Source of the DNA: Amoebophrya sp. A120
Lineage: Eukaryota; Protista; Dinoflagellata
DNA: 64,000 bases
Direction: 5' to 3'
Assembly: GCA_905178155.1 (NCBI GenBank)
Contig: CAJINV010000012.1
Location: forward strand, 802,004-866,003
Shown here: positions 16,915 to 64,000 of the stretch, one piece after another
Numbering within the stretch: position 1 is the first letter of the stretch
Layout of the letters: every line of letters starts with the position of its first letter
The notes under the pieces: generated by a model
Database searches by the model: none
Seen by the model: only the letters and a program-made list of their open reading frames with translations
What the model was told of the DNA's origin: nothing
Translations under genes and position numbers: made by a program

Positions 16915-17300
16915 GAGCGAGGTAACAAAATAAAACAAGAGGGCCTCGGGGGACCTCTTGTCCGCCCGGCCGGGTGGACAAGAGGTCCCCCCCTTTCGCT
17001 GCCGGAGCGGCTGGCTCGCAGAAGTCCCCCCCCGCGTCGCCGCGTCGGCTCCCACCGCCGCCGTCGTCGTATCGGCCCCCGCTACTACCGCGGTACTCAT
17101 CTACACTTGTGGAAAGCATATAGCCGCCACCCAGCGAGCGGCGGACGACGACGGCGGCGGTGGGAGCCGACGCGGCGACGCGGGGGGGGACTTCTGCGAG
17201 CCAGCCGCTCCGGCAGCGACAGGGGGGGACCTCTTGTCCACCCGGCCGGGCGGACAAGAGGTCCCCCGAGGCCCTCTTGTTTTATTTTGTTACCTCGCTC
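16915..17300. mobile_element. Foldback element with about 155-bp near-perfect TIRs (MULE-like MITE)
   Basis: GAGCGAGGTAACAAAATAAAACAAGAGGG... and its reverse complement; each arm holds an internal hairpin; A-rich flanks, TSD not clean. Confidence 0.8.
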
Positions 17301-17653: not shown

Positions 17654-20600
17654 TCACTTTTCCATCACCGACACCGGCGGCGCCGGCCCACAAAACGTTT
17701 CGTACAGCACTTCAAAGGTGGCAAAATGGATATCCGCCACATCTTTCACATCCATCGCGTAGCCCCCCGCCAAAACCACAGCGACCGGGATCTTCTGCTC
17801 CCTGCAGAATTCAAACACAAGTCTATCCCGTTTTTTCAGCCCCTGTTTCGTGATCTTCAGCCCACCCAGCGTATCTCGCTCGTACGGGTTCGCACCGGCG
17901 ACGTAGACCAGCAGCGAGGGTCGTCCTCGCGGTTCATCTCCAGAAGAACTTCTACCAGCACCGTTGTTCTGTTGAGATGTTGACAAGGGCTGCTGCAACA
18001 AGGTCGCGGTCTTTCTTATCTGCCAGGGGAAGAGAGTGTTCGTTCGGATCTGGTGTTTCAATTCCGTGAGCTGGTTTTGGACAATTTTCAAGTATTCTTC
18101 GTCCTGCATGGATGTTCTTAGTTCCACATCCACAGTGCTGGGCGGGCGCCAGTGGGGAAAATTTTGGTTTTCGTGAAGGGAAATGGTCATCACGTAGGGG
18201 TTATGCAATGTAAATTTCCCGTACATGTACAAAATGCATGACAAATTTCGCTAACTTGCAGTGTGCAACTTGTCATGCTAGACTAGGATTGAAGGCAAGT
18301 TTTGTCATGCAGAGACTGCATTTGTACGTGTACGGGAAATATACTGTGGATAGGGGTGGTCGATGACGTCCACCGGCAAATTTTCGTCGTACATCCACTG
18401 GGAAAGGAGCGGATTCTTGTGTTATGCAAGAAAAAAACTGTGTAAGTGTAAATTTGTGTTGCAGAACATGCAACAGAGTTGCGCCTGTCATGCCAGACAG
18501 CCATGAAGTCCTCTTTTCATGTGTGTTTTCCCTTACAAGCCACGCATGACAGGTTTTCTCTGTCATGTAGAGCAAATTTGTGATGCTGTTTCTCAAAGAA
18601 AGTTACACTTACACACTCTTTTTCTTGGATATGTGTACCGGGGGCTTTAAGGAGATCACCTTCATATTAGCACCAATCGTCCTGGAGGGATCGTTCGAGT
18701 TCTTGTTCGCCGCTTTTTTCGTTTCTTGGAGTTGTTGCTCTTCTTGCTGCGTCGGATGAGGGGATCCGGCGACCAGAAACTCGTTCGGGGCTACTCCTAC
18801 TTGGGCGATTTCAAGCCTTTGATACAGGTGGTCGATGACGAAATCATTTTCGTTGCTCGTCGTTGTTCCATCGGAGAAATTTGCCCAATTGTTCGCTGAT
18901 AAGACTTCCCGGTATTTCACTCCGGTCTTGTCTTCATGATCCAAAACGCTGTACACGTAACCGTCCTTGTATTTTTTCCCCTGACTAGTTGTCATGCTGG
19001 TGCCGTCAAGATGATGACCGTTGTTGTTGTGCATCTTCATCTTCTTCGCTCCATGAAGATTTTCATTGCCAACCGCATTCCCCCCGCCAGGAGCAGCTGT
19101 GCCTGTAATATGATCGTGGAAAGCGAACTTCTGCCGGTAACAAGGTGGGAATATGAAAGCCTCAGGCTGGAAATCCTCAAAATGAAAATAATTTGTAATG
19201 CAAAAAAACGACTTCAGTTGGCGCACCATTTGCATTTCTAGTCGGCACATGACAAATTTCCCGGGCACTCAAAACGTGTCTGTCATGCTAGTTAGGCAAA
19301 GGAGTGCCCTTCTCTCATGCTAATCAGCAGCCCAATTCTGAACCCGTAGAGGCACAATAGCCGGCCTCCATTGCGTTCTCTGCAATGCAGTCTTTCTGGT
19401 GTCGCATTTCATGCGTCACAAATCATTTCCACTTTGAGGATTTCCATTCTGAGGGCGTCATAGGGAAAAAGGCGCTCGTCCCGTTTCCCTGGTGCACATC
19501 GCAATCGAAGACCACCGCTCCGTGCGGCAACTTCCCTTCGCTGCGCAGAATTTGTAACGCGATCGCCACGTCGTTTAGAACGCAGTACCCCTCGCCCCAA
19601 AACGGAGCCGCGTGGTGACTACCCCCGCCGATGTTGAAGCCGATAGCGGGTTTCATCGGCTTTTCCTCTTTGTCGTTTGGTGCATCGCCGCCAAAAATGG
19701 TAGTTCTTGCGTCGCCCGCGCAAAAGTAAGAATTCAGCGCATCCTCACAAGCCGCAAGCGTGCCGGCGCAGTCTTTCATCTCGTTTCGCCACACGGTCTC
19801 ATCGCAGGGCACCTCGAACTCCTTCACTGCGGCGAGTGGGTCGGAAAAGTACTGCTTTTCCACCCGGTTGAGAAAGGTGCTTGTGTGCAAGTTTGGGATC
19901 GCTCTTTCCACCCTCTGGAGAAACGTGGAGGGACGTGTGGTCGTGGAAGCTGCGGGGCCTGGAACAAATTCTTGTGCTGTGCCTGTGGTCCCAGAACTTG
20001 AACTGCTGCTGGTGATTCTACTTGTTGTGTCCCCCACGGGGGCCCCAGCTAGTTGCATATAATCTTCGGAGGTGGCGGACGAGGACGACGAGGGGACAAC
20101 TTCTACTGTCGGGTCCAGAATATCCACCAGGCTCGGACCGAGTCGAATAAGCGTATTTCTAGAAGTACCTGCGTCCTCGCTCCTTTCATCGGCCTTCTGC
20201 CTGCTCGTGGTCACACAACCATACTTCTCTTTGATCCAATCGTGCAATAAAACATGTTTGTTCATTATCGCAACAAAAAAGTGTTACAGTTACACATTGT
20301 GTTGCAGGCCAAGCAAGACAGACAAGCTCTGTCATACCGGATACGCCTAGAAGCCTCGTTTCAGAGGTGTTTTCCCGTAGGATTTCTGCATTAATACAAG
20401 TTTTCTCTCTCATGCAGACAAATTTGTGTTGCTGAATTGACTACAAATGTGTAACTGTAACACTTTTTACCTGTGATATTCATGTTGAATCGTTGCCCTT
20501 CCCAATAGTTTTCCGGCCGGGGGAAGTAGCGGACGGTGGGCTTCTTGATGTTGTGATCCATCTTTATTTCGTGCCGCATTTTATTTTCCTGCTCGCCGGC

Positions 20601-21622: not shown

Positions 21623-24600
21623 CTATTTCCGCAAGTAGAAGATGAGCATGCCGAACACGGTATGCAGTGCAAAAGTATCGCACTCGTATAAATTATGCAT
21701 TACAATAAATTTCCTCAGCATGAGAAATAAAATTTGTAATGTTGATTTACCTTAGGGAAAAGATTTGTAATGCATGATTGCAATACGAGTATCAGATACT
21801 TTTGCACAGGATACACGGAAAAGAACAGCGCCCAGCCGACGAGGAAAACCACCCAGCCGACGCCCGCGCGCATGTATGAGAGTGCACAACTCCACCCCCG
21901 CGCCCTCATTTGTAATGCAAAATACCAAATCCACACCTTGCTCGTAAGCACTGTTAGCATCATCATCATCATCATCATGTAGTGGACACCCGCACCCAGC
22001 GCCACAGGTCAAGGATCCCCTCCCCGGGGGGTGGGCGAGGAAGCACTTTCGGCGACCTCAACATACAAAAGCCGAGCGCTACCACGGCAAGTCGCCCCAA
22101 TAAAAATACCAACCAGTCGGGAGCTACCCACCACACCTGATCAGTACAGCCCGGCCAGCTAGCCGAGCGCGACAGCCCAACATACAGAACGATCCAGGAC
22201 CCGACCCATTTTACGCCTTAAGTTTCTGTTCTCACGGAAGAGACGACGTACCCCTTTGGGCTAAGGGGCGAGACTCTCCCTTAAGCCGCAACCCCACCCA
22301 GACAGGGGAGGCTGGACCATTTGTGCCTTACCTGCGGCACGGACGAAAAAGGCAAGTGCCGCGGACCGGAGATGTCAAACCATTGGCCAGTTGTTTGTCA
22401 CTGCTGACAAATTTTGGAACCTCAAATTATAGTATATAGTATGACAATCCGCATGCAGATTTGTCATGCGAAAGCCCCTTTTGTGCTGTTGCTTGCGTTG
22501 CTGTTCATGCAATTATACAAATGCGGGCGAGGGGGAGTTTGCACTCTCGTAGCATGCCGTCCGACTGCAGAATGGTGAACGGCCAGTAGCTATGGATTGC
22601 AAAAGTGTCTGGGTCTGGAAGATTGCAACTTGTAATGCTGTCTTTGGATTCCAAAAAAATCTGTATTGCATGACCTTATTTACCCCTCAACCACTATACC
22701 CCCTTTACAACCACTACCTCAGGTAGGATCTCGGGGGGGAAGGGTCAAGCCCTAACGGGGGTCGGACCCGAGTGAAACCGTTAGAGTGGCTGCATGTCCT
22801 GGTCGAAACCGGAATTCCAAAAGCACGGTATCGTTTCCAGCGGTAAACCAGGCAACACACGACGAACAGACAAAGACGAGGGACTTGGGCAGAGCAAAGG
22901 GATAGCTGGGGTCTCCTGCAGCTGAAAAATAACGTCGCGATGCGACTGGACTGGGGTCTCCAGCAGTCCACCAAAAAGCCCTAATCTGTATTGCATGACC
23001 AGCAACAGGACTCCAGTTTGTGTTACGCGGAAAGGGCATTTCTCATGCGGAGTAGGCATTAGGAAGCCCTCTAAAAATCTGCGTTGCTAGATTCTGCATT
23101 AGAGGTCTCAATCACCATACAAAATATACATGACAAGTCTGCATTTTTCCAGACCCAGACATTTTTACATTTGATAGTACCCGGCGTCATCGTGGACAAA
23201 ATTCTGCTCGTCAAAGTTGATCGCACGATCGCAGATTTTGCAGCGCATCACCGATTCCCCCTTATCGCACTTGGATTTCAAGTATGAGAGTGCACAAGAC
23301 CTCCCTCGTCTCCCCCTCGTTTATATTGCATGATGAACAGCAATACAACCGTCGGCAAGAATACAGGTTTTGCTGCATGACAAACTTGGACAGGAGTGTA
23401 GTGCTATTTGGGCTCCTGCCAAGACTTCTCATGCAAACAGTGCCAAGCGGCAAGGCGTAAATTAGGTTTTTTGCATGACAAATGAGGGGCAGAGGGGAAC
23501 AAGTTGTGCACTGACATATCAAGTTAAGCGGGACACCAACGCCCTTGTAGGATTCCGTTGCGTACTCGTACTCCGTGGCCGAGCACAGGTTCACGCGGGT
23601 TGCGTACCTAGTATAAGTGGGCGATTTAAACATATTCATTATTGCACTTTTTTTTTTTGAATGCGGGAGGGGATTTCGGCCGCTATGCACTTCAGATCTA
23701 ATTATTAGCGCCGGGTGCAACATGATAAGTAATTCCGTCAGACATTGTTCTGATGCACAAAAAGATTGTTCTGCAGCAAAGCATTCAAGTCCTGCCAGCA
23801 CGTAAGAAGTTTCATCAATCCGAATCCAGCACTTCTATTACCATGCACAATTCCGCTTCACGTCCACATTAGGGATGCTCTCACACAGCGCCTGGCAGTC
23901 CGGCGCATTGTGGTAGGTGAACTCGGCGCAGTCCGTCGTGCCCGGAGCTTATCCTGCGCAAAAGTATCGCACGGCACACGTATTGCAATCATGCATAAAT
24001 TTTTTTCTTGAGGTAAATCAGCATCACAAATTTCATTTCTCATGCTGAGAAAATAATTTGTAATGCATTTGTACGAGTACGATACTTTTGCAATGCATAG
24101 AGCTTCCTTCCTCGCAAAGACCTTAACAAAGGTCGCCGTGGCTCGGCCGAAATAGGTGGAGCCGGCGAAGTTTGCGGCTTCATGGTTCGAGACCTTTTGA
24201 TGTTTGGTACGAAGAACGTGGGAATTAGCAGCGGCTGTCAGTAGCTGCTTGTTATTGCAAAGACAGCTCAGTCATTTATTGGTCGAGCAATTGTTTCTTT
24301 TTGTTCCACAAGTAGAATGCTCCTAAATCTTTGCGAGTAGGACTACACTTCTACCTTCTCAGCTGCTTGCTTCTTGTCCTTAGCCGTCGCGACCGGTAAA
24401 GCTTTCGCAACATCCTCCGTCGAGGACACCCCACCAGCAGCTCCGGTGGACGATGACGGTTTCGGCGGCGCCACGGCACTGGCGCTTAGGGGAGCAAGTA
24501 CCGATGAAGATGGCGGTTTGATATTCTTGAAGTCCAACGGAGCTCCCGCCGTGCTCGGAGAGCGGTCCGTAGTAGAAGCAGATTGAGACGCAGATACTTC

Positions 24601-26509
24601 AATAATTTAAGCAGATTGCCCGGCGCCAGAGAAGCTGCGGCTGCCTTGGCGAGGGCAGGGGAGAGTGCGTCGCCGATCCATCGCACAAGGCGGCCGGCGG
24701 CTTGTAAGAAAACCGGGCGCCACTACTGCAGAGTTAACTCCATCCAACGAAGGTCGACCCCTACACCGCCAGGGGCAAAAAGTTGCCGCGTGACCATGAG
24801 TTTTGATTTTCCAGAAACAACACAACGAAAAAAGGTAGGGCGAAACGTGGCGCGCCTCAAACAAAGACGCAGCCCGTTGGTTGGCTTTGTCGTGGCGCCG
24901 GTGTCCCATGCATGCTCATGCCCTTAGTCTCTCGCGAGTCGCCACCGAGCTCCGGAGCGGAATCCCATGCAGCGGCGCCTGCACGACAGGTGCTACCCTC
25001 GGACAAAAGGCCCGTAACAACGCACGCACCACGCTACATGCGCCTTAAGGTAGGAGCGCAGCCCCACGGCGCCAGTGCGCGCGCGCTATGCCGCATAAGG
25101 AAGGAACCAGACAACCGTGGCGCCCACCTCCTCAGGAATGGCTGAGGAGGTGGGCGCTGTCGTTGCTCTTGCTCCACACTGGGAAAACAAGAAATCCTCG
25201 CCTCCGCGCGGAGGCGTGGCCCACGACTTGCTTCCGAGGCCAATGCTGGATGCAACAAAAAAAAATTCTTCGGCGCGCTGCGCGCGCCGTTCCGAAAATA
25301 AGAAATCGACCCCTCCGCGCGGAGGGGTCGATTTCTTATTTTCGGTTTCTTCGTCCGCCGCTGGCGGCCCAGAAAGAAACAGACCCCTCCGCGCGGAGGG
25401 GGCGGTTTGTTTGATAGCCGGACCACTACCTTTTACCCAGAAAACAAGGATAGTTGGCACTTTCGGAACTTCCGGGTCCTAAAGAAACCGCCCCCTCCGG
25501 GCGGAGGGGCCGGTTTCTTTGTGGGCCGCTAGCGACGCAAGAAGAGGCCGAGCTTTCCTGTCGAACGAAACACGACAGCTCCACTCAACCCTCCACGCGG
25601 AGGGCCTAACTTATTGGCTTTGCGAATTGTTTCCGCGACCTGCGCGCGGAACATTTGTTCGCTTTTCATGCTTTCGCGAAGTGGCGCCGCGTCTCGTGCA
25701 GTGGCTCCTCGCCGCGGCCGCCAGCTGTTTTTTTTTTTATTCCCGGCCACCCTATGAAACGCGCAACACCCCTGCGCCGAAACCTTTGGCGCACGCGAGT
25801 AAAAACGTCGCGGCGGGCTGCTTTGCTTCCGCGGGGCCGCGTGTGCCTCTACGAATGTGCCGCAAAGACTGAAAACGCGACGCCAAATCGTTCGTAAAAC
25901 AGGGCAAGGCAACGCAGGCGCACAAGGTGAGGCTGCATAGCGCAAAAATGAAGATGGAGCACCATCATGGTGAGGCTTAAGAATGCGCCTGCTCCAACAA
26001 AAATACTAGAAGCAGGTCGGAGGGCAACTGGGACAGCAAGACCGAATTTTGTTGGCTGGAGGGGCCGACCGCCCTTCTCAGTCGCCCTCTCTAATATCCC
26101 TATCGGCCCAAGCGAGTGCGTAACCCTCGCGCAAGCGGATTCAGCGGCAAGCTTCTCTAGCATGCAGCCAGGAAGTCATGGGGAGTGCCACCTGGACCTG
26201 CTACCTTGACGATCAACGCTTGACCTTCGTCCTCACAATGCCAAAATGATAAAAAGTGGCAACTTTTGGATCTGCTTAAATTTGCGAAGTATCTGCTACA
26301 ATTTCCTTCTGGTGAGTACTCTTCAACTCCAACGAAGCTCCCGCCGTGCTCGGAGAGCGGCCCGTGGCTGCAGTCTTCTTGACACTCGCACTCTGCTTCA
26401 GCTTTCCCGTGGCTGCCTTCAGAGCTTGGTGCGGAGCAATGGGAGCAACAGCAGAAGCCAGCGAGGGCAACAAGACGAGCGAGCAGGGTACTATTAAACG
26501 GCCGGGCAT
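21623..26509 (-). CDS. Uncharacterised protein with signal peptide, Cys-containing region and C-terminal TM helix
   Basis: MPGRLIVPCSLVLLPSLASA...; ends GMRAGVGWVVFLVGWALFFSVFGMLIFYLRK* after introner removal; interrupted by five introners and a 1.75-kb insert. Confidence 0.65.
21661..21813. mobile_element. Introner family B
   Basis: TSD CACGG. Confidence 0.95.
21875..22551. mobile_element. Introner family C with nested insertion
   Basis: TSD GCATG; family C ends; expanded to 677 bp. Confidence 0.9.
21958..22404 (-). mobile_element. Probable 5'-truncated non-LTR retroposon/SINE with (ATG)n tail
   Basis: Starts with (CAT)7 at a GCAT|GACAA site of the host introner; sequence unrelated to family C siblings. 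Confidence 0.55.
22591..23176. mobile_element. Introner family A with nested 307-bp insert (22676-22982)
   Basis: TSD GTAGC/GTACC; insert flanked by 18-bp duplication AATCTGTATTGCATGACC. Confidence 0.9.
23283..23518. mobile_element. Introner family C
   Basis: TSD TCAAG. Confidence 0.9.
23950..24099. mobile_element. Introner family B
   Basis: TSD GAGCT. Confidence 0.95.
24571..26319. mobile_element. 1.75-kb insert with near-terminal inverted repeats, flanked by 46-bp direct repeats, inside a CDS
   Basis: DR 24525-24570 / 26320-26365 (4 mismatches); IR GCAGATACTTC..AATTTAAGCAGAT at 24590 and reverse complement at 26270-26296. Confidence 0.75.
25292..25345. repeat. Perfect 54-bp palindrome centred on CCTCCGCGCGGAGG
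   Basis: CCGAAAATAAGAAATCGACCCCTCCGC|GCGGAGGGGTCGATTTCTTATTTTCGG; core recurs near 25201, 25385, 25493, 25590. Confidence 0.95.
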
Positions 26510-30753: not shown

Positions 30754-31706
30754 ACTGGATACCGCGTCGATTCATTCTGTTCTTGCTAGTGCGCACGACT
30801 TGCTCTACTCGACCTGCTCTTTCGACCTGCTCTTTGCTAGCTTCCGACATGTCTACAGAAATTTTCGCGCTGGTGTGGCCACACCGGGGTAGAAACTTCT
30901 GTAGGGCTGCTCAAAATTACTGCGCGGGGTAGCTAACCGTCGCAGGTAGGACGAGCGTCAAGAGCGACAGAATTTTGCTGATCGGGCAAAATTGTATCTA
31001 TCCGAACGGCTACGCCTACAAATTTCAATCGATCCCCATAAGCCGGAGCAAGGGGATAAGACTCAAGGAATTCGGCCACTGGGCCCCAGTCTCGGCCACT
31101 CTCCTTTACTTTCTTATCTTGCACGCTACTAGTACCTGGTCGATACCTCTCGCAAATTCTTAGCGAGGCAGGGAAGGTCGTCACAAAATTCGGTTTTCAT
31201 CCCGAATGCTTACACTCCCAACACAGAAATATCCCGACGGCAGTAGTTGCGCGGGAAACAGCGGAAACCGATTGCGATGCTCCCATCGCATTGAAGAGCG
31301 GGAATTTTATCTATCAGCAGAGGGGGCGGATGGTTTCACCATCAGCATCTTCAAGCTGAATATGTAGCCAGGCTCGACACCTTGGAGCAATCCAGGTCGC
31401 CTGATCCGGGCTGAGCCTTTTCGTGCCTTCTTTCAAAGCCTAGCACCAGCAGAGGCAACATCTTGCACAGCGGTGCTGATGTCCTTCACGCTGGGCGTGT
31501 TTGGTTCAACTTTTACAACAGATTCGAGACCGACAAATCTGGTTCGAAAACAGAGCGCGCTACTTCTGACACTTTTCTTGCGTCAGAATTCTTCATCAAT
31601 CTCAGAGCCTCAGCTGCGAGTCTGGTTGCTGCGCAATAACTGGAGACCGCGTCGATTCATTCTGTTCTTGCTAGTGCGCACGACTTGCTCTACTCGACCT
31701 GCTCTT
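30754..31706. repeat. 68-bp direct repeats flanking an 817-bp insert
   Basis: 30754-30821 and 31639-31706, one mismatch; short partial re-copy TCGACCTGCTCTT right after the first repeat. Confidence 0.9.
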
Positions 31707-32024: not shown

Positions 32025-33152
32025 GGTAGATTCAGTGAAAACTTCTCCTTCATCAGTTTTGTCCTAATCAAAACAGCCTTTGTATCACAAGAAAAAGCGT
32101 ACACGTACACGGTTTTGCCTTTTTCCGAACAAAAATTTTTTGTGTGCTCCCTCGAGGCGTTCACTTGTGTCAGTGAAAGCATTCGCTACGAAGTTCGCTA
32201 GATTGGGAGCCTGGCACAGCTGGCGCACCTAGAGCACACGGTCCGAAGGTCATAGCGAAGGTCCAGCAGAAAGGGGAAAGAAGCAACCGAGTCAGCTGCC
32301 CAACGCTCCTGGTCTCGTCTCAGGGCGGCGCAAAAAAGGCCGAGAAGGCCAGGAGCTGTCGTTCTAGCGCCTAGAGGCGGGCCGCCGGTGGCTCCTGCAA
32401 CCTGCGACCCAGGTTCTCCCTTCGCCGAGGATCAAAGCCACCCAACAAACCGCCGCCACCATCAAAACAGGTGACGGGCCTCCTTTTGGAGAGGTAAACG
32501 GGCCATGCCATGCAGTCTGGAGATGATGTACACGGTTTTTCTTGGGGTCAAGAAAATCCGCAGAAAAAGAGGCAAATTTATCTGAATTTTGAGTGTGAAA
32601 TCGCGCACCATCAAAAAACCCTGTACATCGCATCCAACCTGCGTGGTATGATGGATGTGCACGGTCTGCGAAGTGGTCGGGTCCGGAGACAGACGCTCTG
32701 AACCGTGTACATCGGCCATACCATGCAGTCTAGATGCGATGTACACGGTTTTTGTGGGCCCTTTTCGAATTTTGTCGCAAGTTTACCACTTTTGAAACCG
32801 TGTACATGGACCATAGCATGGTAGTTAGGTTCCATGTACACGGTTTTTGGCCAATCTGAAAAATTTGGCCTTGGAGGTATGCAAAAAATTGCGTTTTTCC
32901 GGACATCCGAAATTTGGAAACTTTCCCAGATCTCGGAACACAACACAGCCAGACGAACCTGCCGAGAAATCTGAAGCAGTTCGGCTCCCGCCCAAACAAT
33001 ATTCCGCAGCCCCCATCAATGTTTCCGACCCCAAACACAGCCTGGCGGGTGGGGGTGGAGTGTTCATGGCGGTGGGACACTGTCGGGCATTGGAGGTAGA
33101 TTCAGTGAAAACTTCTCCTTCATCAGTTTTGTCCTAATCAAAACAGCCTTTG
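32025..33152. repeat. 58-bp perfect direct repeats flanking a 1012-bp transposon-like insert
   Basis: GGTAGATTCAGTGAAAAC...AACAGCCTTTG at 32025-32082 and 33095-33152. Confidence 0.95.
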
Positions 33153-33861: not shown

Positions 33862-34516
33862 TACAAGGGTGAAAAACATACTCGCTTTCAAAATTCAAAT
33901 TTTTTTGAAGCCCCCTTGCAGCATCCGGCCCGACTGTCCTCATCCGCGTCACCCGGCTCAGTGGCCCCACAAGCGGCTCCGGATTCTCCGACCTATCAAT
34001 TCCTTTTTTTTGAGATGTAGTCTGATAGTGATGAATGAGAATGCGAGTGAAAGTATGTAGCTTGTCGCGGTGATAGCTAGTGTAAAGTAGATAGCATTTG
34101 AGACGTTTTGTGACAGATGTCGGCAGCAGGTAGACGCTCATCAGCGACAGGAGCCTCCCAGCAATGCCATCCGGTCTGGGCACCAGACTGGTGCCCAAAA
34201 TGCCGCTCAAGGCGATACACAGCTCCGGACCAGCAGCACTCCGGGCAATGGACTATGCAAAAAAACGTCTTCAAATGCGAGCGCAAATTTACACTACCTA
34301 TCACCGCGACAAGCTAGCCTGCTAGATAATAAGACTACTCAAGTGACATCATCAACATACTCCAGCAATTCAGGTAACGAAAAAAGGTCCCGCGACTCAC
34401 CTGCCCGACGCCTTCCAGTTCAACGAGGCCACCGACGGGGTCCTATCTGGACCCACCCTCAAGGGGGGCAGAAAAAAATTTGATTTTTGAAAGCGAATAC
34501 GTTTTTCATCGCTGTA
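33862..34516. mobile_element. Intergenic TA...TA MITE with nested MITE at 34058-34316
   Basis: Outer about 45-bp TIR, perfect TSD CGGGT; inner TIR TAGCTTGTCGCGGTGATAG.TAGTGTAAA. Confidence 0.9.
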
Positions 34517-55962: not shown

Positions 55963-58100
55963 TCATGAAGCAGCTCCAGTCGAACCGTAATAAGGTTTTT
56001 CAACCCGATCCTCTACACTATCTTCATCCTTATTGTCATTGTCCCCAAGAACCCCAGCAACTTTTACATCAACATGTACACCGTCAGAATTGTCCCATCT
56101 CCCGAACAAATACAACGCCGCGCCGCTCAAACTAAACCCCAGCCCGAACATCTGGACGACTCTCAACTGCTTTTCCAACAGGTACAGACTCGTCCCAATC
56201 AGCAAGACCTTGTTTGCCGTCGCCTATCAAATGCAAATATGTCTGGGTCTGGAAGAGTGCATGTTTGTCATGCTTGTCTGGCGTGACTCTTAAATCTGTC
56301 ACGCACGTTACCCAAGAGCCCCGCTGTGCTGTCATGCAGAAACGCAGTTTGTCATGGAGAATAGGCAACACCTAGAAGCTCAAAAGCTTGTCATGCTGAG
56401 CCAGCACCTGTGGCCTCCTCATGATACGCCACCCAGCATCACAAGTTTCCAGACCCGGACATTTTTACAATTCATATCGCCTGGACGGAAGCGAAAAACG
56501 AGCCCGCGTGATGGATCAGCATCGTGTCGGTTAGAAACCACATTTATGCTGTGCAAAAGTATCGCACTCGTAGTAATCGCAGCCATGCATTACAAATCTC
56601 GATCCCATTCCCAAGGCAAACCGGCATGACAAACTCCATTTCTCATGCTGAGTAAATTTGTCATGCGATTTCTACCAGTACGATACTTTTGCAATGCATA
56701 ACATTGTGGTTGTGACAATTTTGATCAAGAAAGCGGTGAAAACCGGAAGCTGCGCAAATTTTTCGCCGATTATGTCCTGTAAGGGCTCATCCGAGGCGGA
56801 GGTAAATTGAATTTGCATGATCGCCGAGCCACTTTGAGTTTGTTGTAGTAGTGCAACTTCTCCAGATGTGGAAGTGGAAGTCGTTCCAGCTGCACTATTA
56901 TCCCCACCGCCAACACCCTCGTTCCTATGTCCACCGCCGCGCAAAACCTTCGTCCCAAACTCCTCGAAAGGTGCGGTCCCCTCGAACAGCAGTGACAAAA
57001 CCAACAAGCCGATCACGTTCAACGGACTCAACAGCCGGACAAGGAGAAAAGTCGTTTTCAGGTCCGCTTGTTCCTCCTTCCGGACCATTGCTTCTTCGGT
57101 GAAAAGCCGGACGGAAACCGCGAATATCACCGCGAAAACGGATAATGCTAGCCCGACCGCAGTGAAGGACATTTCTTCCGCCCCGTACCCGAACAGACAG
57201 CCGCCGACGGTGAGAGAGAGAGCCGCGATTGGAGCGGTTTTTGCGAGAACTTTCCCTTGGTAGAATTCCGCGAGGAGTAACTGCGGGATCACCTTTGTTA
57301 TCCTGTGAAAAACAGTATCGCACTCGTATTAAAACTAATCGCGACACTGCATATACAAATCAGATTTTCTACCTGCGGCTGGTCCAGTTCTAGCATCACA
57401 AAAGATTGCAAATGCGATTTCTGCTATGTAGTGCGTCGATGCTTTTACAACCGTGCATATCGGTCATTTGGATCATGGAGTGGAGAGAGGGGACGAGGAA
57501 TTTCAAAGCTCCGTTGTGCGTCGCCCCGGACCCGATGTTCAGGAAGCCGAGGGGCAGAATCTCTTTGTAGAAGTCGTAGTCTAATTCTTCCTCGTCCTTG
57601 TGCTGCTCGTCCCGAGCGGCCCCCGACGCTCTCTTGGTCTTGCTACGGTCTTGTTCACCAGCAGCGCTAGGATGAAGATCCTGCGCGTCGTGTTCATCTT
57701 CCGTACTGTGGTTCTCTGCATCACGCCCTGACTGCTCGTCTTTCCCGCCTTCATCATCCTCTACAGCTGTAACGCCATTCGGGTTATTTGACGGCGACCA
57801 AAACAACGCGACTAGAATCACCGCCAGGAAAACGACAAACGTTTGGTCGACGACGGTGAGAAAAACCGGGTAGGGGAAATCATATCTTGTGCAAAAAACC
57901 CGAAGGAGAAGGTGGTAAACGACGTAGCCGGTTGCGTTTGCGACGGATTCCGCGGCGATAGTAGCTACCGACGCACCGGAGGTAATGCGGCGTTCGAGGT
58001 GGTGGTTGGTCCTCGGCGTGATTAGTCCTGCTCTTGGATGAGGTTCAGGAGATTTTTGGTGCTCGGGATCTTCCACATCGATATGGTCGTCATCCTCCAT
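55963..58100 (-). CDS. Triose-phosphate/nucleotide-sugar transporter family (TPT/SLC35, DMT superfamily)
   Basis: YDFPYPVFLT, ILPLGFL...HNGALKFL, SFTAVGLALS, LLSPL, QMFGLGFSLSGAALY; many TM helices; three introners. Confidence 0.85.
56225..56476. mobile_element. Introner family A
   Basis: TSD TCGCC. Confidence 0.95.
56545..56700. mobile_element. Introner family B
   Basis: TSD ACATT. Confidence 0.95.
57299..57459. mobile_element. Introner family B (degenerate)
   Basis: TSD TTTGT/TCGGT. Confidence 0.75.
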
Positions 58101-59180
58101 TTTGTTCTTGGGTGTAAATAATATGAGTCGTGTGAAGCGATGATAATGATTCTTGTTCGAGCATAGTCAGAAAATGCTTGAGTTCTTCACAGCGACGATA
58201 ACGTCATGCGCCTCACTCAATGTTGCGAAGATGAAATTGAGGGCAAACTGCAACCCAAGATGACTATTGCATCTACCACTTCGATGGATTATTTGGCGGC
58301 CGAGGTTGAATGCGGTTGCTAATGCTATTGTATGTCGTAGCTTGGCTTTCCTAATTCTTCTTGTCGAAGTAGTCAAATCCGATCATCATAATGATAATTT
58401 GCCAGACGATTCAACGAATCTACTGCGAAAGACGACAGCGATTTTTTTCCCCAAGCGAAACGATATACGAAAGCGAAGCCACCAAAACCTAATGTGGCAC
58501 GACCAACACAACGACGAAAAAACTTCTCTCGCCCATCAACATCAAGAACTACCGCCCTCCAAGTGAGGGAGTGGCAGAGAACAGGCCTGTCGCTATGGCT
58601 TCTGCTTCAGCTTTCCTTGCTTCGGTTGCTGTGTTGTGATGACACTTTATCATGGTGTTGGTAGTTGTACCGCATCAATTTGATAAGCAGGAAGTCTTGA
58701 TCTTGAAGAACTGAGTATATTACCATCTATGTGTGTGATTGTTTGAAACATAATTTTGGCGAAACATAACGTATAGTCAAGTGAGTCGTTGAATTTCAAT
58801 TTCTCCTGTGGCGGTAAAAAATTCCTTGTACAGGTAGCGAATTAAGGCCCGCCAAGAAAAAATAATCACATGTAGTGCGCAGGAGCGATTTTCGACACAA
58901 TAAGAAGGCCAGGTCCTGATAGATAAACTAGACAGCTTGAGCCGCTCTTTTCCAAGAGGGAAACGTGGATGGAAAGAAGTACTTCTACTTTCTCAAAGTC
59001 CACACTGACACAGAAATTGGTTTCGCTCCTACTAGGTTCCGCCGGGAAAATTTGCCAGAGAATCATAGAAACTTCTGTCGCCAAAAATCTACCGCGCGAC
59101 AAAGCAACGAACTACAAGAACTCCTGTCCACCTCCACATGATGAAGCAGTTGCAAAAAGCAGGCCTCGAACTATGGCTTC

Positions 59181-61728
59181 CGTTGCCATTTTCGTTACTT
59201 CTGTTGCTGGGCGGTTGTGAAGATGACGCTTATTTTTTAGCGCGAAAGTACCCCTAACGAACAAATCGAAAACAAATTGCACCCATTTTCAAAAAAAATG
59301 AATTCAAAAAAGATGGTCGGGATCCTCCATTGTTCCATACAAGCAGCAGCGTTCCAGGCGGTTCACATGGTTTTCTCAGATAGAATAGGTTTGGTCTCAA
59401 TTTTGCATAGCATTCGCCGAAACCGACGGTGGACATGTTTTTTCACAGCGACCGATATTGGAAACGTTAGAAGATTTGATCAAGATTTACCACAGCATCG
59501 GAATTTGGTTACTTCGCAGTGTTTTCCCTATCGCTACGAGAACTTGCAGGACTTAGAAAGCTGAAACGATTAGCGATGGCACCGAAGGGCTTCATGGCCC
59601 GGCTGAAGGCCGGGGAGAAACTCAGCGCAGCAGATTGGGCGACGCCACCACGCGGGGGGCATTCGGATTCAGCTCCAAAGGAAGGTCGCACCCTGCCGGC
59701 TAGGCAGTTTGATGTCCCGGACCTCGACACGAAAGTTGCATGTGTGGGCCAGAAGAGTGGAGAGGAGGAGAACCGGAGCAACTCCGTCGACGGCTTCTTC
59801 AAGCACCAGCCCGCGCCGGATAGTATGTTGATGGAAATTGTAGTCGCGCCAGCATTTGTGTTGCGAGGACAGCGTGATTGATGTACGTTCTCAATCACAT
59901 CCTGCAACACAAATGCCGTCGCGCCTACGCATTTTCATCTTCATCTCGAAGTGGCACGCTCGGGCTTATTCGAAGATCGTCTTCCTCATCATGCAGTTCT
60001 ACAAGGCGGCCATGGTTAAGCTGTGCAAGTCATTTACGCCCACCCACAAGCTAATTCGTATCGAAGCGGACGCAACACCGGTCGGGCATCGGGTACAACA
60101 GAGCTACGGGCAGACGATCGACCGCAGTGCCAAGGCGTTTTTAACCATCTGTGACGTCAGCTGGCTGCTTTCGGATGTTGAACCAGAAAAAGCCGACAGC
60201 GCAACTTGGATCACCTTTAATACGCCGTCGGAGGTGCGGCTGATTCAGAAGCAACACTACGACGACCAAACGGAGACAGATATGGTTTTCGATTTGTTAG
60301 CCTCCGTCCCGGGGCTCAAGGAGGCGGCCACCGGCGCGACCGGTGTGTTGGAAGTGAGTATCGTGGTGGACGCGGCGAAGTCGAACGTGAGCGCCCTGCA
60401 CCTCTTCTGCCAGTGGGTGCACGATTTGAATCCGCAGGTCGTCTGCGTCGCCCGGTTTTGTAGTCTACATGCCGCCAGCCACTCGATGCAAGACGCCTGC
60501 AGCCTCGTTCTTTGCGACCTTCTCGGGAAAAACGTGAAGGCTTTGGAAAAGAGAATTTTTTTGGTCACCCGCCTCTACTCCGCACAGACCGCAACTATCC
60601 AGGACAACACACAAAAGATGATCGACCGGGGGCTGGTGACGGTGGAAGACGCTACAACAGAAGGGGATCCGCAGCGATCTGCTTTCCGCGAGTATTGCCA
60701 AATGATGGGGCTGGACAGCAAGCGGGTCGGGGATGACGTTGCCATTTTCGTTACTTCTGTTGCTGGGCGGTTGTGATGACGCTTATTTTATGATCTAGTC
60801 AACATCTTCTCCGACGGATAGATCATCCTATGGATGATCATCGTTGGATGTGCGCTCCGGGAGTCAGGAGGTGCAGGCGCCCGCGACCAAGCATGTGGAG
60901 AGCCTACCCCACCGGCGGAGACGCAACGCATCGACGCGACCCAAAGAACCCTACGGCACCAGCTGGAGATGAATTTGGGTACCGAACAGCCGCCCCACAC
61001 GCAAGAGTGCGTGCGACGACACCGACTGAGATGCCAAAGACTGTCACACAGCATCCCAACAAGGCTCCAAAAGGGCGAAACAAAGCGCCTTCGCCCTGGC
61101 CCTTAGCAAAATCCTTGTCAACTACCGAAACCACAAGAGCAGCTAGTGGCAGAAGCGCTGCCCAAGAATCAGCGTAAGAACGTTTAATATAGGAAATAAC
61201 TCCCCGGAAGCTCCGGCTTCACTTCGGATACGTAGTGCGCTTGACCACTCGCACACTGATGAAAGAGGTCTCAACCCTGACAACTCGGCCGGGATGCGGC
61301 CGGGGAAATGCTGGAAAGTCATCGAGCAACAAGAAGTACTCAGATCAAGAGCCCACGGGGATGAACGCGCCCCCAGGTCAAAGACCTGCATACCAAACAA
61401 CTATCCAGGAAGGAACCTTCCAAAGCACAAGAGTAGACCTCGCGGCGGTGGCCACAACGCCCGCGCAAGCTGTGTGTCTCAAACGGAAATAATAACTTCG
61501 GCGCGGGATCCTTTCCGAAGACACTGCGTGCAAAGAAAACTCGGAGCCACCCGGCACCATGACACAGGGAAAGAGAGTCCGGAGCCCATGAAAAGATTGG
61601 AGCCGTCATCTGCGACACCCTTCCGGAGATGCGCGCGAACTCACTAAGACTGCCTCTGGAGCAGTAAGCCACCGTTTCCATTTTCGTTACTTCTGTTGCT
61701 GGGCGGTTGTGATGACGCTTATTTTTTT
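59181..61728 (+). repeat. Three direct repeats of about 53 bp separated by 1.5-kb and 0.88-kb unique inserts
   Basis: CGTTGCCATTTTCGTTACTTCTGTTGCTGGGCGGTTGTGATGACGCTTATTTT at 59181, 60737 and 61673. Confidence 0.95.
59576..60776 (+). pseudogene. Truncated DDE transposase of the hAT-like (CxxH) type
   Basis: IRIEADAT (first D), SIVVDAAKSNVSA (hAT-like tDnasN..A), RFCSLHAASHS (CxxH); frame change near 59870; cut at the repeat at 60737 before any catalytic E. Confidence 0.65.
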
Positions 61729-62550
61729 ATGGTACCACATCAAGTTGATAAGGAAGTCTTGAAGAACTGGTATGTCTGAAACATGTTCAACTTCAACTTC
61801 AATCTTCTGGCGAAACTTTGCAGCTTAAGTAGGTAATCGAATCCTTGAATTTCAATTTCTTCTGTGGTAGTAAAAAATTCCTTGTACAGGTACGGAACCA
61901 AGGCCCGCCACGAAGAAATCTCGAAGAAGAATGCTCGATTGTGCGACTTCTGCGAATGTTGACGCACTGACAATAGCAATACAACAAGATACAATAAGCT
62001 TTGCAGCTTGCCGCTCTCTTGCAAGAGAGAATGGGAAACATGAATGGGTATAAAAATAAATATCAAAGCACCCACAATGATGAATCTATAATCTAAACAG
62101 CGTTCTTCAGAAAGATTTTGATGATCTTCGAGAAGATATGTTGACGTTTGCAAGTAGAAACACATCGATCACGTGCAGCCTAGATAAACTTCGTTGACTC
62201 ATTTGCATTTCATATTCCAGATACATAGAATTAGAATTCCTCTAGTCAACCTTCTGCGCACCCAGCTGGCTCCCGCCAGCACCGGGATAAAGTATACAGC
62301 TTGCCGCTCTCTTTCAAGAGGGAAACGTGGATGGAAAGAAGTATTTTCTCAAAGTCCACACTGACGCTAAAATTGGTTTCGCTCCTACTAGGTTCCGCCG
62401 GGAAAATTTGCCAGAGAACAAGAGCGACGAAGGCTCTAGAAGTACTCCTGTGGGCAAATGAATCATGGCATCATGTGCAACCTAGAAGTAGTAGACCTTG
62501 AATTTTTTTTCTCTTTGTTCAAAAGAAAACTACTACAACCTCCTCACTGT

Positions 62551-64000
62551 TTATTTATTGTCCGGCGCCACCTGGTGCGCTCCCGGCTGACCGCTCCCCA
62601 TGTTGATCCCCATCCCTGAATCACCACCAGCAGAATTGTCGATCGGCGGACTAGTCACAACGACTGTCACCGGTGGACCGACCAAATCCGCTTTTCCGGA
62701 TGTCCGTGCGGTCTCATCGACGCCTGCTCCTGGGACTGCTGAGGACGACGAAGCTGCTGCTGCGCTATTTCCCATCGGCACCATCTGTGCGGTGGTCAAC
62801 TGCGTCTGTTGTTGCTGCTGCATCTGTGGTGCTCCCTGCTCCATGTGGGATTTGGTGAATGTGTTGAAAATCTGTTCCAGACTCGTGGGGGAGATCGCGT
62901 ACTCCTTGATCTTAAACTGGACCTTCACCGATTCCAATAGTCCGAACAACTGCCCAAGTTTCTTCTGGTCGGCGAAGATGCGAAAAGTGACCTGCTCACT
63001 ACCGCCCTGCGAATCGGTGAGGAAAGCGCCGGGGAAGGTCTGCGCCACGTAGTCGGTCAGGGTCAAACGGTAGACGGATTGGGTTAACCTGATTTGTATT
63101 CATTTTATTTTGCGTTGCTAGTGCAAGACCAAGATGCTTGTCATGGAGGACAGGAGCGCGCTGTGAAGCTGGAAATGCTCTACTTGAATAGAATCCCTTT
63201 GTTCATGTTCTGACTTAGAATTATGAAAGCCGCCCGCAACCTAAAAAAGAAAATCGTATACCAGTGCAGAATCACTTTCGCCTTGCAGGTTGACGCTTGC
63301 ATCTCCAGCAGCTCGTCGTTCCGGATCTTGTCCTATCAACTGTAAAAATGTCTGGGTCTGGAAACTTGTGATGCTGGGTGGCGTCTCATGATGAGGCCAC
63401 AAATGCTGGCGCAGCATGACAAGTTTCTGAGCTCCTAGGTGTTGCCTATTCTGCATGACAAACTGCGTTTCTGCATCACAGAAAAGCGGAGCTCTTGGGT
63501 AACGTGCATGACAGATTTAAGAGTCATGCCAGACAAGCATGACAAGCCTGGGAATCTTCCAGACCCAGACATTTTTGCATTTGATATGTCCTGCGGTTTG
63601 CTGCTCAGCCGCGCCACGCTCGCATACGGACTCGCACGCGAGGCGCGAAGTAAGAATTGAATCCGCTGCTGCAGTGGCCAAACTGGGTCGTACTGGTGGA
63701 GCAGTTGGCACAGGTGGATCAGCATGATGTTACTGTTCATCGCATTCACATCATCCGGATTCAACATCGCATTGCTACCCAGAAACGTCGTCCATAGTTG
63801 TTTTTGCTCCGTGAAACTCGGGGACTCTAACTTCACGTACAAATCAAACCCGTTTCCGTACTGCGCCTTGATTTCTGGTATCGATTATGCAATACAAATT
63901 TCCCGTACATGTAAAAGATGCATCACAAATTTATTCCCCAATTTGCCGTGTGAAACTTGTCATGCTAAACTAGGATCGAAGCCAAATTTTACCATGCAGA
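62551..64000 (-). CDS. ABCA-subfamily ABC transporter, C-terminal part (continues beyond the window)
   Basis: IPEIKAQYGNGFDLYVKL; LGQLFGLLESVKVQFKIKEYAISPTSLEQIF. Confidence 0.85.
63334..63586. mobile_element. Introner family A
   Basis: TSD TGTCC. Confidence 0.95.
63886..64000. mobile_element. Introner family I, cut by window edge
   Basis: TATGCAATACAAATTTCCCGTACATG left end. Confidence 0.85.

Follow-up and report, generated by a model that had tools for sequence, protein, structure and literature searches.

The array at positions 59181 to 61728 of the window (the whole 64-kb stretch of Amoebophrya sp. A120 DNA that we analysed) is a locally generated triple target duplication that holds two truncated mobile-element ends. 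It is likely one case of a recurring capture of transposon ends at DNA breaks, and not a CRISPR-like memory. The array is intergenic and lies left of an ABCA-type transporter gene. Its three repeat copies (R1, R2 and R3) start at 59181, 60737 and 61673, in agreement with the three copies of about 53 bp described in a first-pass annotation of this DNA, and a 25-mer from the repeat core matched the window three times compared with no match in 100 shuffles. R1, the host target copy (59181–59238), has its last T in common with the start of insert 1; the last six bases of R2 (60737–60789) overlap a terminus common to the other copies of insert 2; and R3 (61673–61728) is preceded by three junction bases. 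R1 and R2 share 40 exact bases and R2 and R3 share 48. R1 bears a private 3-nt insertion, R3 a single private base change, and at their right ends R1, R2 and R3 carry runs of 6, 4 and 7 T.

The target site is held in a tandem duplication of ∼520 bp, with unit A at about 58538–59062 and unit B at about 59110–62418. Unit A contains an empty paralogous site at about 58595–58650, close to where the first-pass annotation had placed a diverged, insert-free version (about 58600–58650). Local alignment of the repeat to this site scored 80, compared with a maximum of 34 in 200 shuffles, at about 70% identity. Because this homologous version is free of inserts, on sequence comparison the repeat is host intergenic target sequence and part of neither insert. 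The repeat core had no match in metagenome contigs. A spliced-leader origin of the repeat was rejected, with no match to the leader motif within three mismatches. An Rfam scan over 57500–63000 returned six matches, all sub-threshold and mostly to the intron hairpin.

The order of the array was compared with contigs from four of the 11 listed sequencing runs, of which X1 and X2 are from one sample and may be the source of the assembly, and X3 and X6 are from a second study. The left flank, R1 and insert 1 were bridged without differences by a single X6 contig (record 25), and insert 1 together with 40 bases of R2 was bridged by an X3 contig (record 20). Right-flank contigs of X1 and X2 both start at 61696, 30 bases before R2 and R3 diverge, and an R2-type join is therefore implied; R3 and the right flank are also covered by contigs. 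The join of insert 2 to R3 was not among the 30 of 124 pieces listed, where contigs run through into the element's own continuation. Residual depth at the junction was 46 and 25, against 43 and 26 in the flank, which fits a single-copy junction or a shared repeat piece. X1 and X2 contigs also leave R1 unbroken into the alleles of another copy of insert 1. This reflects either graph simplification or a second cassette of repeat plus insert 1, and the other copy may include the end of R1.

Insert 1 (59238–60736, plus strand, 1,499 bp) appears to be the left portion of a hAT-like transposon that has lost its right side. Exon 1 of its transposase-like gene (59576–59818, with an ATG at 59576 and the homologs' spacing between the residues FF and SKW) is followed by a retained inverted-repeat, introner-like intron of 127 nt (59819–59945, limits inferred) and by exon 2 (59946–60736), where alignment to the homologs places the first D, second D and CxxH motifs. 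Unspliced, the frame from the ATG hits a stop inside the hairpin; removal of 59819–59945 restores both the frame and the six-residue FF-to-SKW spacing found in all three homologs, and host-like codon scores change frame at the same segment. A HMMER scan with exon 2 gave three matches among 1.84 billion representatives (E below 1e-51, 42–45% identity). All three are proteins of Amoebophrya AT5.2, 1,288–1,406 aa long, and no other homologs were found; searches of metagenome and viral contigs and word-index searches gave no relatives of the transposase either. Insert 1 spans just the first quarter to third of these proteins and ends near homolog residue 335–430, before the TRF and E motifs.

The hAT motif order (D, D, CxxH, W, E) and consensus provided the basis for class assignment. 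In the homologs, motifs occur in the order RIE.DAT, D.ASSN, C.LH, TRFAT and STL.VEQL. Neither D motif varies among the fragment and the three homologs, C.LH is found in all four sequences and TRFAT in 3/3 homologs, and the E motif lies about 390 residues past the second D. The homologs thus resemble the hAT DDE transposases Hermes and Kat1 in their order of D, D, CxxH, TRF(W) and E, and PMC4763223 describes a DDE triad, a CxxH motif and an insertion domain in hAT enzymes. In contrast to those enzymes, the homologs are 1,300–1,400 aa long, have no Pfam hAT or BED match and have relatives found only in Amoebophrya. At E up to 1, Pfam gave no match in the three very divergent homologs, neither to a BED finger nor to the C-terminal dimerisation domain of hAT enzymes, and Pfam and PDB searches with the insert 1 protein were blank or weak. 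In the Atlas, the closest clusters that carry a name are hAT or P-element transposases (0.79–0.82), which gives a lead only. Predicted models at pLDDT 44 would place both D residues at strand ends, and fold searches with these models gave no significant match. Insert 1 is likely a truncated hAT-like transposase, assigned by motif, and homologs with motifs in hAT order bear out its initial description as a truncated transposase. Among the proteins searched, the family appears in Amoebophrya alone, and Pfam appears to miss it.

Variant contigs show one further copy of insert 1, with at least 36 listed differences in about 1.4 kb. Summed contig depth over insert 1 was about twice that of the flank, depth being a rough proxy for copy number. 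The left end is probably a natural terminus, as suggested by this depth and by its first five bases, which fit a hAT-type terminal consensus. No contig among the 17 of 35 loose ends listed joins this left end to another flank.

Insert 2 derives from a separate multicopy element; its left end at 60784/5 is natural, and its right end is cut at about 61669. It is an unclassified element terminus of ∼0.88 kb (60784–61672; 883 bp at 60790–61672) with a subterminal hairpin at 60810–60848 (z about −2.3 against 100 base shuffles). Other copies begin at 60784/5 with unrelated flanks in three contigs of X1, two of X2 and one of X3, and past 61669 a contig in all four runs continues with identical letters unlike those of the window. 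Depth was about 18–20 times that of the flank at the left end, falling to about four times further in, and comparison with the X3 copy gave two base differences in 885. Insert 2 has no clear coding frame and no tail, and the eight frames searched in the 0.88 kb present gave no reverse transcriptase, endonuclease or other recognizable protein. As a separate reading, a Helitron origin was rejected; the CTAG near the end is missing from a variant copy. The independence of insert 2 removes the alternative, raised in the first-pass annotation, that both inserts are adjacent parts of one element with an internal repeat. Together with the homology of the repeat to the empty paralogous site, it upholds the proposal that the same target was duplicated with each insert. 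The inserts had also been called unique, which holds within the window and fails for the genome, where other copies exist in run contigs. The element is not site-specific, since its other copies lie next to unrelated sequence.

Long target duplications appear to recur in the window, because two further inserts carry flanking repeats of 58–68 bp. Among 36 nearby direct-repeat pairs, 11 were without dispersed copies, compared with no such pairs in each of five shuffles; three of the 11 belong to the triple repeat, four to units A and B, one lies inside insert B and three mark further sites. At site A (30754–31706), 68-bp direct repeats (30754/31639, one mismatch) flank an 817-bp insert, whose first 13 bp copy the end of the repeat again. 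At site B (32025–33152), identical 58-bp direct repeats (32025/33095) flank a 1,012-bp insert, insert B, whose start is exactly an unpaired introner-type TAT-N7-AAA terminus; among the 10 insert ends tested for this terminus, this was the only one to have it, against a background of 0.0009 per base. A third site (24522/26317) has direct repeats of 49 bp at 90% identity and was not relied on. Each site uses its own repeat and none of these resembles the triple repeat, and sites A and B have no paralog in the window. These unrelated repeats, with the unrelated flanks of the insert 2 copies, speak against a site-specific integration hotspot, which had been suggested for the array. No insert carries a poly(A) tail. 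Within insert B, direct and inverted repeats of subterminal type cluster at 32500–32850. The repeats at 24522–26365 lie within what appears to be coding sequence and flank a GC-rich insert of 1.75 kb that contains several palindromes; this segment may be an exon repeat or a long-repeat insert of greater age. The internal repeat at 61994/62287 is an older tandem duplication at ∼70% identity and was left out of the count of long-repeat inserts.

From the junction anatomy at three to four sites, we propose that two right-truncated mobile-element ends were captured at a staggered break and that the single-stranded overhang was copied after each capture, a reading to which we give an even chance of being right. 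Nicks about 53 nt apart would leave two 3′ overhangs. The T-rich end of one overhang would pair by one to six bases with a free mobile-element end, either excised DNA or an RNA ending there, with priming homology of TA for insert 1 and up to TATTTT for insert 2. A polymerase, with a reverse transcriptase from a retroelement and a repair enzyme similar to Pol theta as candidates, would copy 0.9–1.5 kb, then switch to the opposite overhang at its tip and copy the target; for insert 1, a DNA template would be favoured. A second priming round at the same unsealed break would then add insert 2 and the third repeat, so that both duplications would start within one base without a sequence-specific enzyme. 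There is precedent for such outcomes: breaks with 3′ overhangs yield templated inserts as well as tandem duplications, and repeats made in several rounds (PMC5730883), L1 can draw on two templates for one insert or on nearby DNA as template (PMC11702581), and retrotransposition has the same geometry with a template jump to the target (PMC2881922).

Among these, repair of 3′-overhang breaks by cNHEJ/TMEJ (PMC5730883) is described as duplicating the sequence between the nicks, capturing inserts and generating multiple repeats in repeated rounds, all as in the array. The array differs from those duplications in that its inserts are 0.8–1.5 kb mobile-element ends from elsewhere, in that the breaks would be natural, and in that the pattern recurs every few tens of kilobases. 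Against a single event stands the contrast between two differences in 885 bases for insert 2 and at least 36 listed differences in about 1.4 kb for insert 1. This unequal divergence fits two events of different age, unless the donor of insert 1 was an excised copy that is now gone. The private changes in the repeat copies (one each in R1 and R3) do not settle the order of insertion. Under break capture, the array likely arose as a side effect of transposon activity, repeated at other sites in the genome, rather than as a dedicated memory locus.

An unlikely alternative to break capture is that a non-LTR retrotransposon similar to CRE/SLACS or R9, whose nicks have a long and fixed stagger, inserted in two separate rounds of target-primed reverse transcription. 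The target duplications of SLACS and R9 are 49 bp and 126 bp long. Insert 2 would then be the retrotransposon's own 5′-truncated 3′ end on the minus strand, and insert 1 a trans-mobilised antisense transcript. Each repeat does start with an A-run on the minus strand, the L1-type geometry described in PMC11702581, and insert 2 combines an intact, hairpin-bearing end with a depth that falls away from that end. PMC3636483 lists CRE, R4, R8 and R9 as makers of target duplications, and these elements, SLACS and complex L1 insertions share with the array one intact and one truncated end, a T-rich priming end, a target duplication and occasional two-template inserts (PMC3636483, PMC2881922, PMC11702581). 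However, the unrelated flanks of the other insert 2 copies argue against site specificity, and insert 2 has neither a tail nor an RT or endonuclease match in its eight frames. The intron of insert 1 is retained and one end of this insert is presumably a DNA terminus, and insert B begins at a DNA-transposon-type end. Compared with non-LTR retrotransposons in general, the array has no tail, no RT seen and no conserved multicopy target gene, whereas it has intron-containing DNA-transposon cargo and a full copy of the target between the inserts.

We also regard as rather improbable that a DNA element transposed by one end twice, with a transposase joining a single end, displacement synthesis duplicating 50–70 bp and the element then being broken and end-joined. 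A canonical hAT insertion is a two-ended element within an 8-bp target duplication, whereas the repeats here are about 53 bp long and surround a one-ended fragment. Inserts 1, 2 and B each have a natural or presumed terminus on one side, which would suit joining by a single end, as would the retained intron, the absence of tails and the different apparent ages of the inserts, and single-end joins by a hAT-family enzyme in vitro are reported in PMC4763223. Yet only chance would then place the stop of the second duplication within one base of the first, and site A, with its 13-bp re-copy, would be left unexplained.

An error of assembly in part of the array, for example a collapsed full-length element 2 or a further repeat-insert unit, is very unlikely. 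It would be compatible with the missing join between insert 2 and R3 among the pieces listed and the contigs that pass through at that place, with a second copy of insert 1 that may share the end of R1, and with a junction depth that suits a shared repeat piece as well as a single-copy contig. It is opposed by the bridging of flank to R1 to insert 1, and of insert 1 to R2, without differences in the second-study runs, by the R2-type fork implied by the contig starts at 61696 in X1 and X2 and the coverage of R3 into the right flank, and by the private changes that the repeat copies bear.

That the locus is a dedicated acquisition array or transposon trap, storing element ends antisense to transcription as a source of silencing RNA, is highly improbable. 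CRISPR arrays have short spacers of near-constant length. The array shares with them the repeat-insert-repeat form and the regeneration of the repeat with each foreign piece; the same boundaries were used twice, both inserts are mobile-element ends, and the transposase is antisense to the local gene block, in which 12 of the 14 ORFs of at least 250 aa are on the minus strand. In contrast to a CRISPR array, it lies in a eukaryote, its inserts are of 1,499 and 883 bp, and it consists of two units with a local repeat that forms no family. Other sites have unrelated repeats, members of the insert 2 family lack site specificity, and a scan of 51 translations revealed no acquisition gene. The first-pass suggestions of a transposon trap and of a likeness to spacer acquisition are not supported, in view of these unequal inserts, the local repeat and the absence of such a gene from the translations. 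In line with the annotation's statement that no cas or integrase gene is visible, a Pfam search of 51 translations (part of the 121 ORFs, genes being split by introns) found no cas, integrase or reverse-transcriptase family. In a broader form, a genome-wide process would write one-ended element fragments of 0.8–1.5 kb between duplicated targets of 50–70 bp, could act more than once at the same site, would place the fragments in gene blocks transcribed by read-through, and would thereby keep a heritable anti-transposon record as a eukaryotic functional analogue of spacer acquisition; we consider this distinctly unlikely. Import by gene conversion from a paralogous site that already held an element behind the repeat is barely credible, as the left flank has single-copy depth and sites A and B have no paralog in the window, despite the unbroken contigs from R1 into a diverged insert 1 allele.

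Duplications of 50–70 bp far exceed the 12–18 bp reported for L1 (PMC11702581) and the 3–5 nt given for introners in PMC7789003, and three clear sites lie within 64 kb. An abstract-level search that reached few subscription papers found no report of transposon-end inserts flanked by 50–70 bp repeats in Amoebophrya. If genome-wide, they would point to an unusual pathway of break repair or transposition in a lineage known for massive intron gain. PMC7789003 gives TAT-N7-AAA as the terminus of one group of Amoebophrya introners. The inverted-repeat introns of the window, including the one in insert 1, and the TAT-N7-AAA terminus of insert B resemble these introners; whereas introners are two-ended with direct repeats of 3–5 nt (PMC7789003), the inserts described here are one-ended with repeats of 53–68 bp. 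Candidate enzymes exist in the genus, since non-LTR, LTR and TIR-derived introners have been reported there, according to PMC12130899. Insert 1 also reveals a large hAT-like transposase family restricted to Amoebophrya among the proteins searched, and this family of 1,288–1,406 aa is a candidate mobiliser of introner-type elements. General spread of introners by transposases was ruled out in PMC7789003, given that one strain yielded only two putative transposases; divergent hAT-like enzymes reopen this as a testable question.

The window is full of inverted-repeat elements of 110–320 bp that break reading frames, and of its 63 TAT-N7-AAA motifs on the plus strand, 45 have a partner facing them at no more than 450 nt. 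At 16915–17300 lies a near-perfect palindrome of ∼390 bp (90%). Nested inverted repeats at 33862–34516 (33862–33918/34460–34516 and 34058–34109/34262–34316) are probably one TIR element inside another. A histone deacetylase-family gene is found at 19423–20265; its best named match is an Amoebophrya protein at 43% identity, and matches after the top two are largely bacterial-type AcuC-like proteins.

Codon scores gave no support for a common protein-coding role of units A and B, and this candidate was rejected. In the two runs that may be RNA, contigs extend over the right portion of each unit (58645–59043 and 61683–62700), starting at the target site or close to it. A long 3′ UTR or a non-coding RNA may be what the units represent. 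Unit B carries an older internal tandem duplication of ∼290 bp at 61994–62373, and a partial third unit lies at 62396–62464. In unit A, box C and box D motifs lie 75 nt apart at 58632–58717, a segment with a weak, non-significant Rfam match to C/D snoRNA (E 0.64). The box C motif falls inside the duplicated target, and the version in unit B is without a matching box D.
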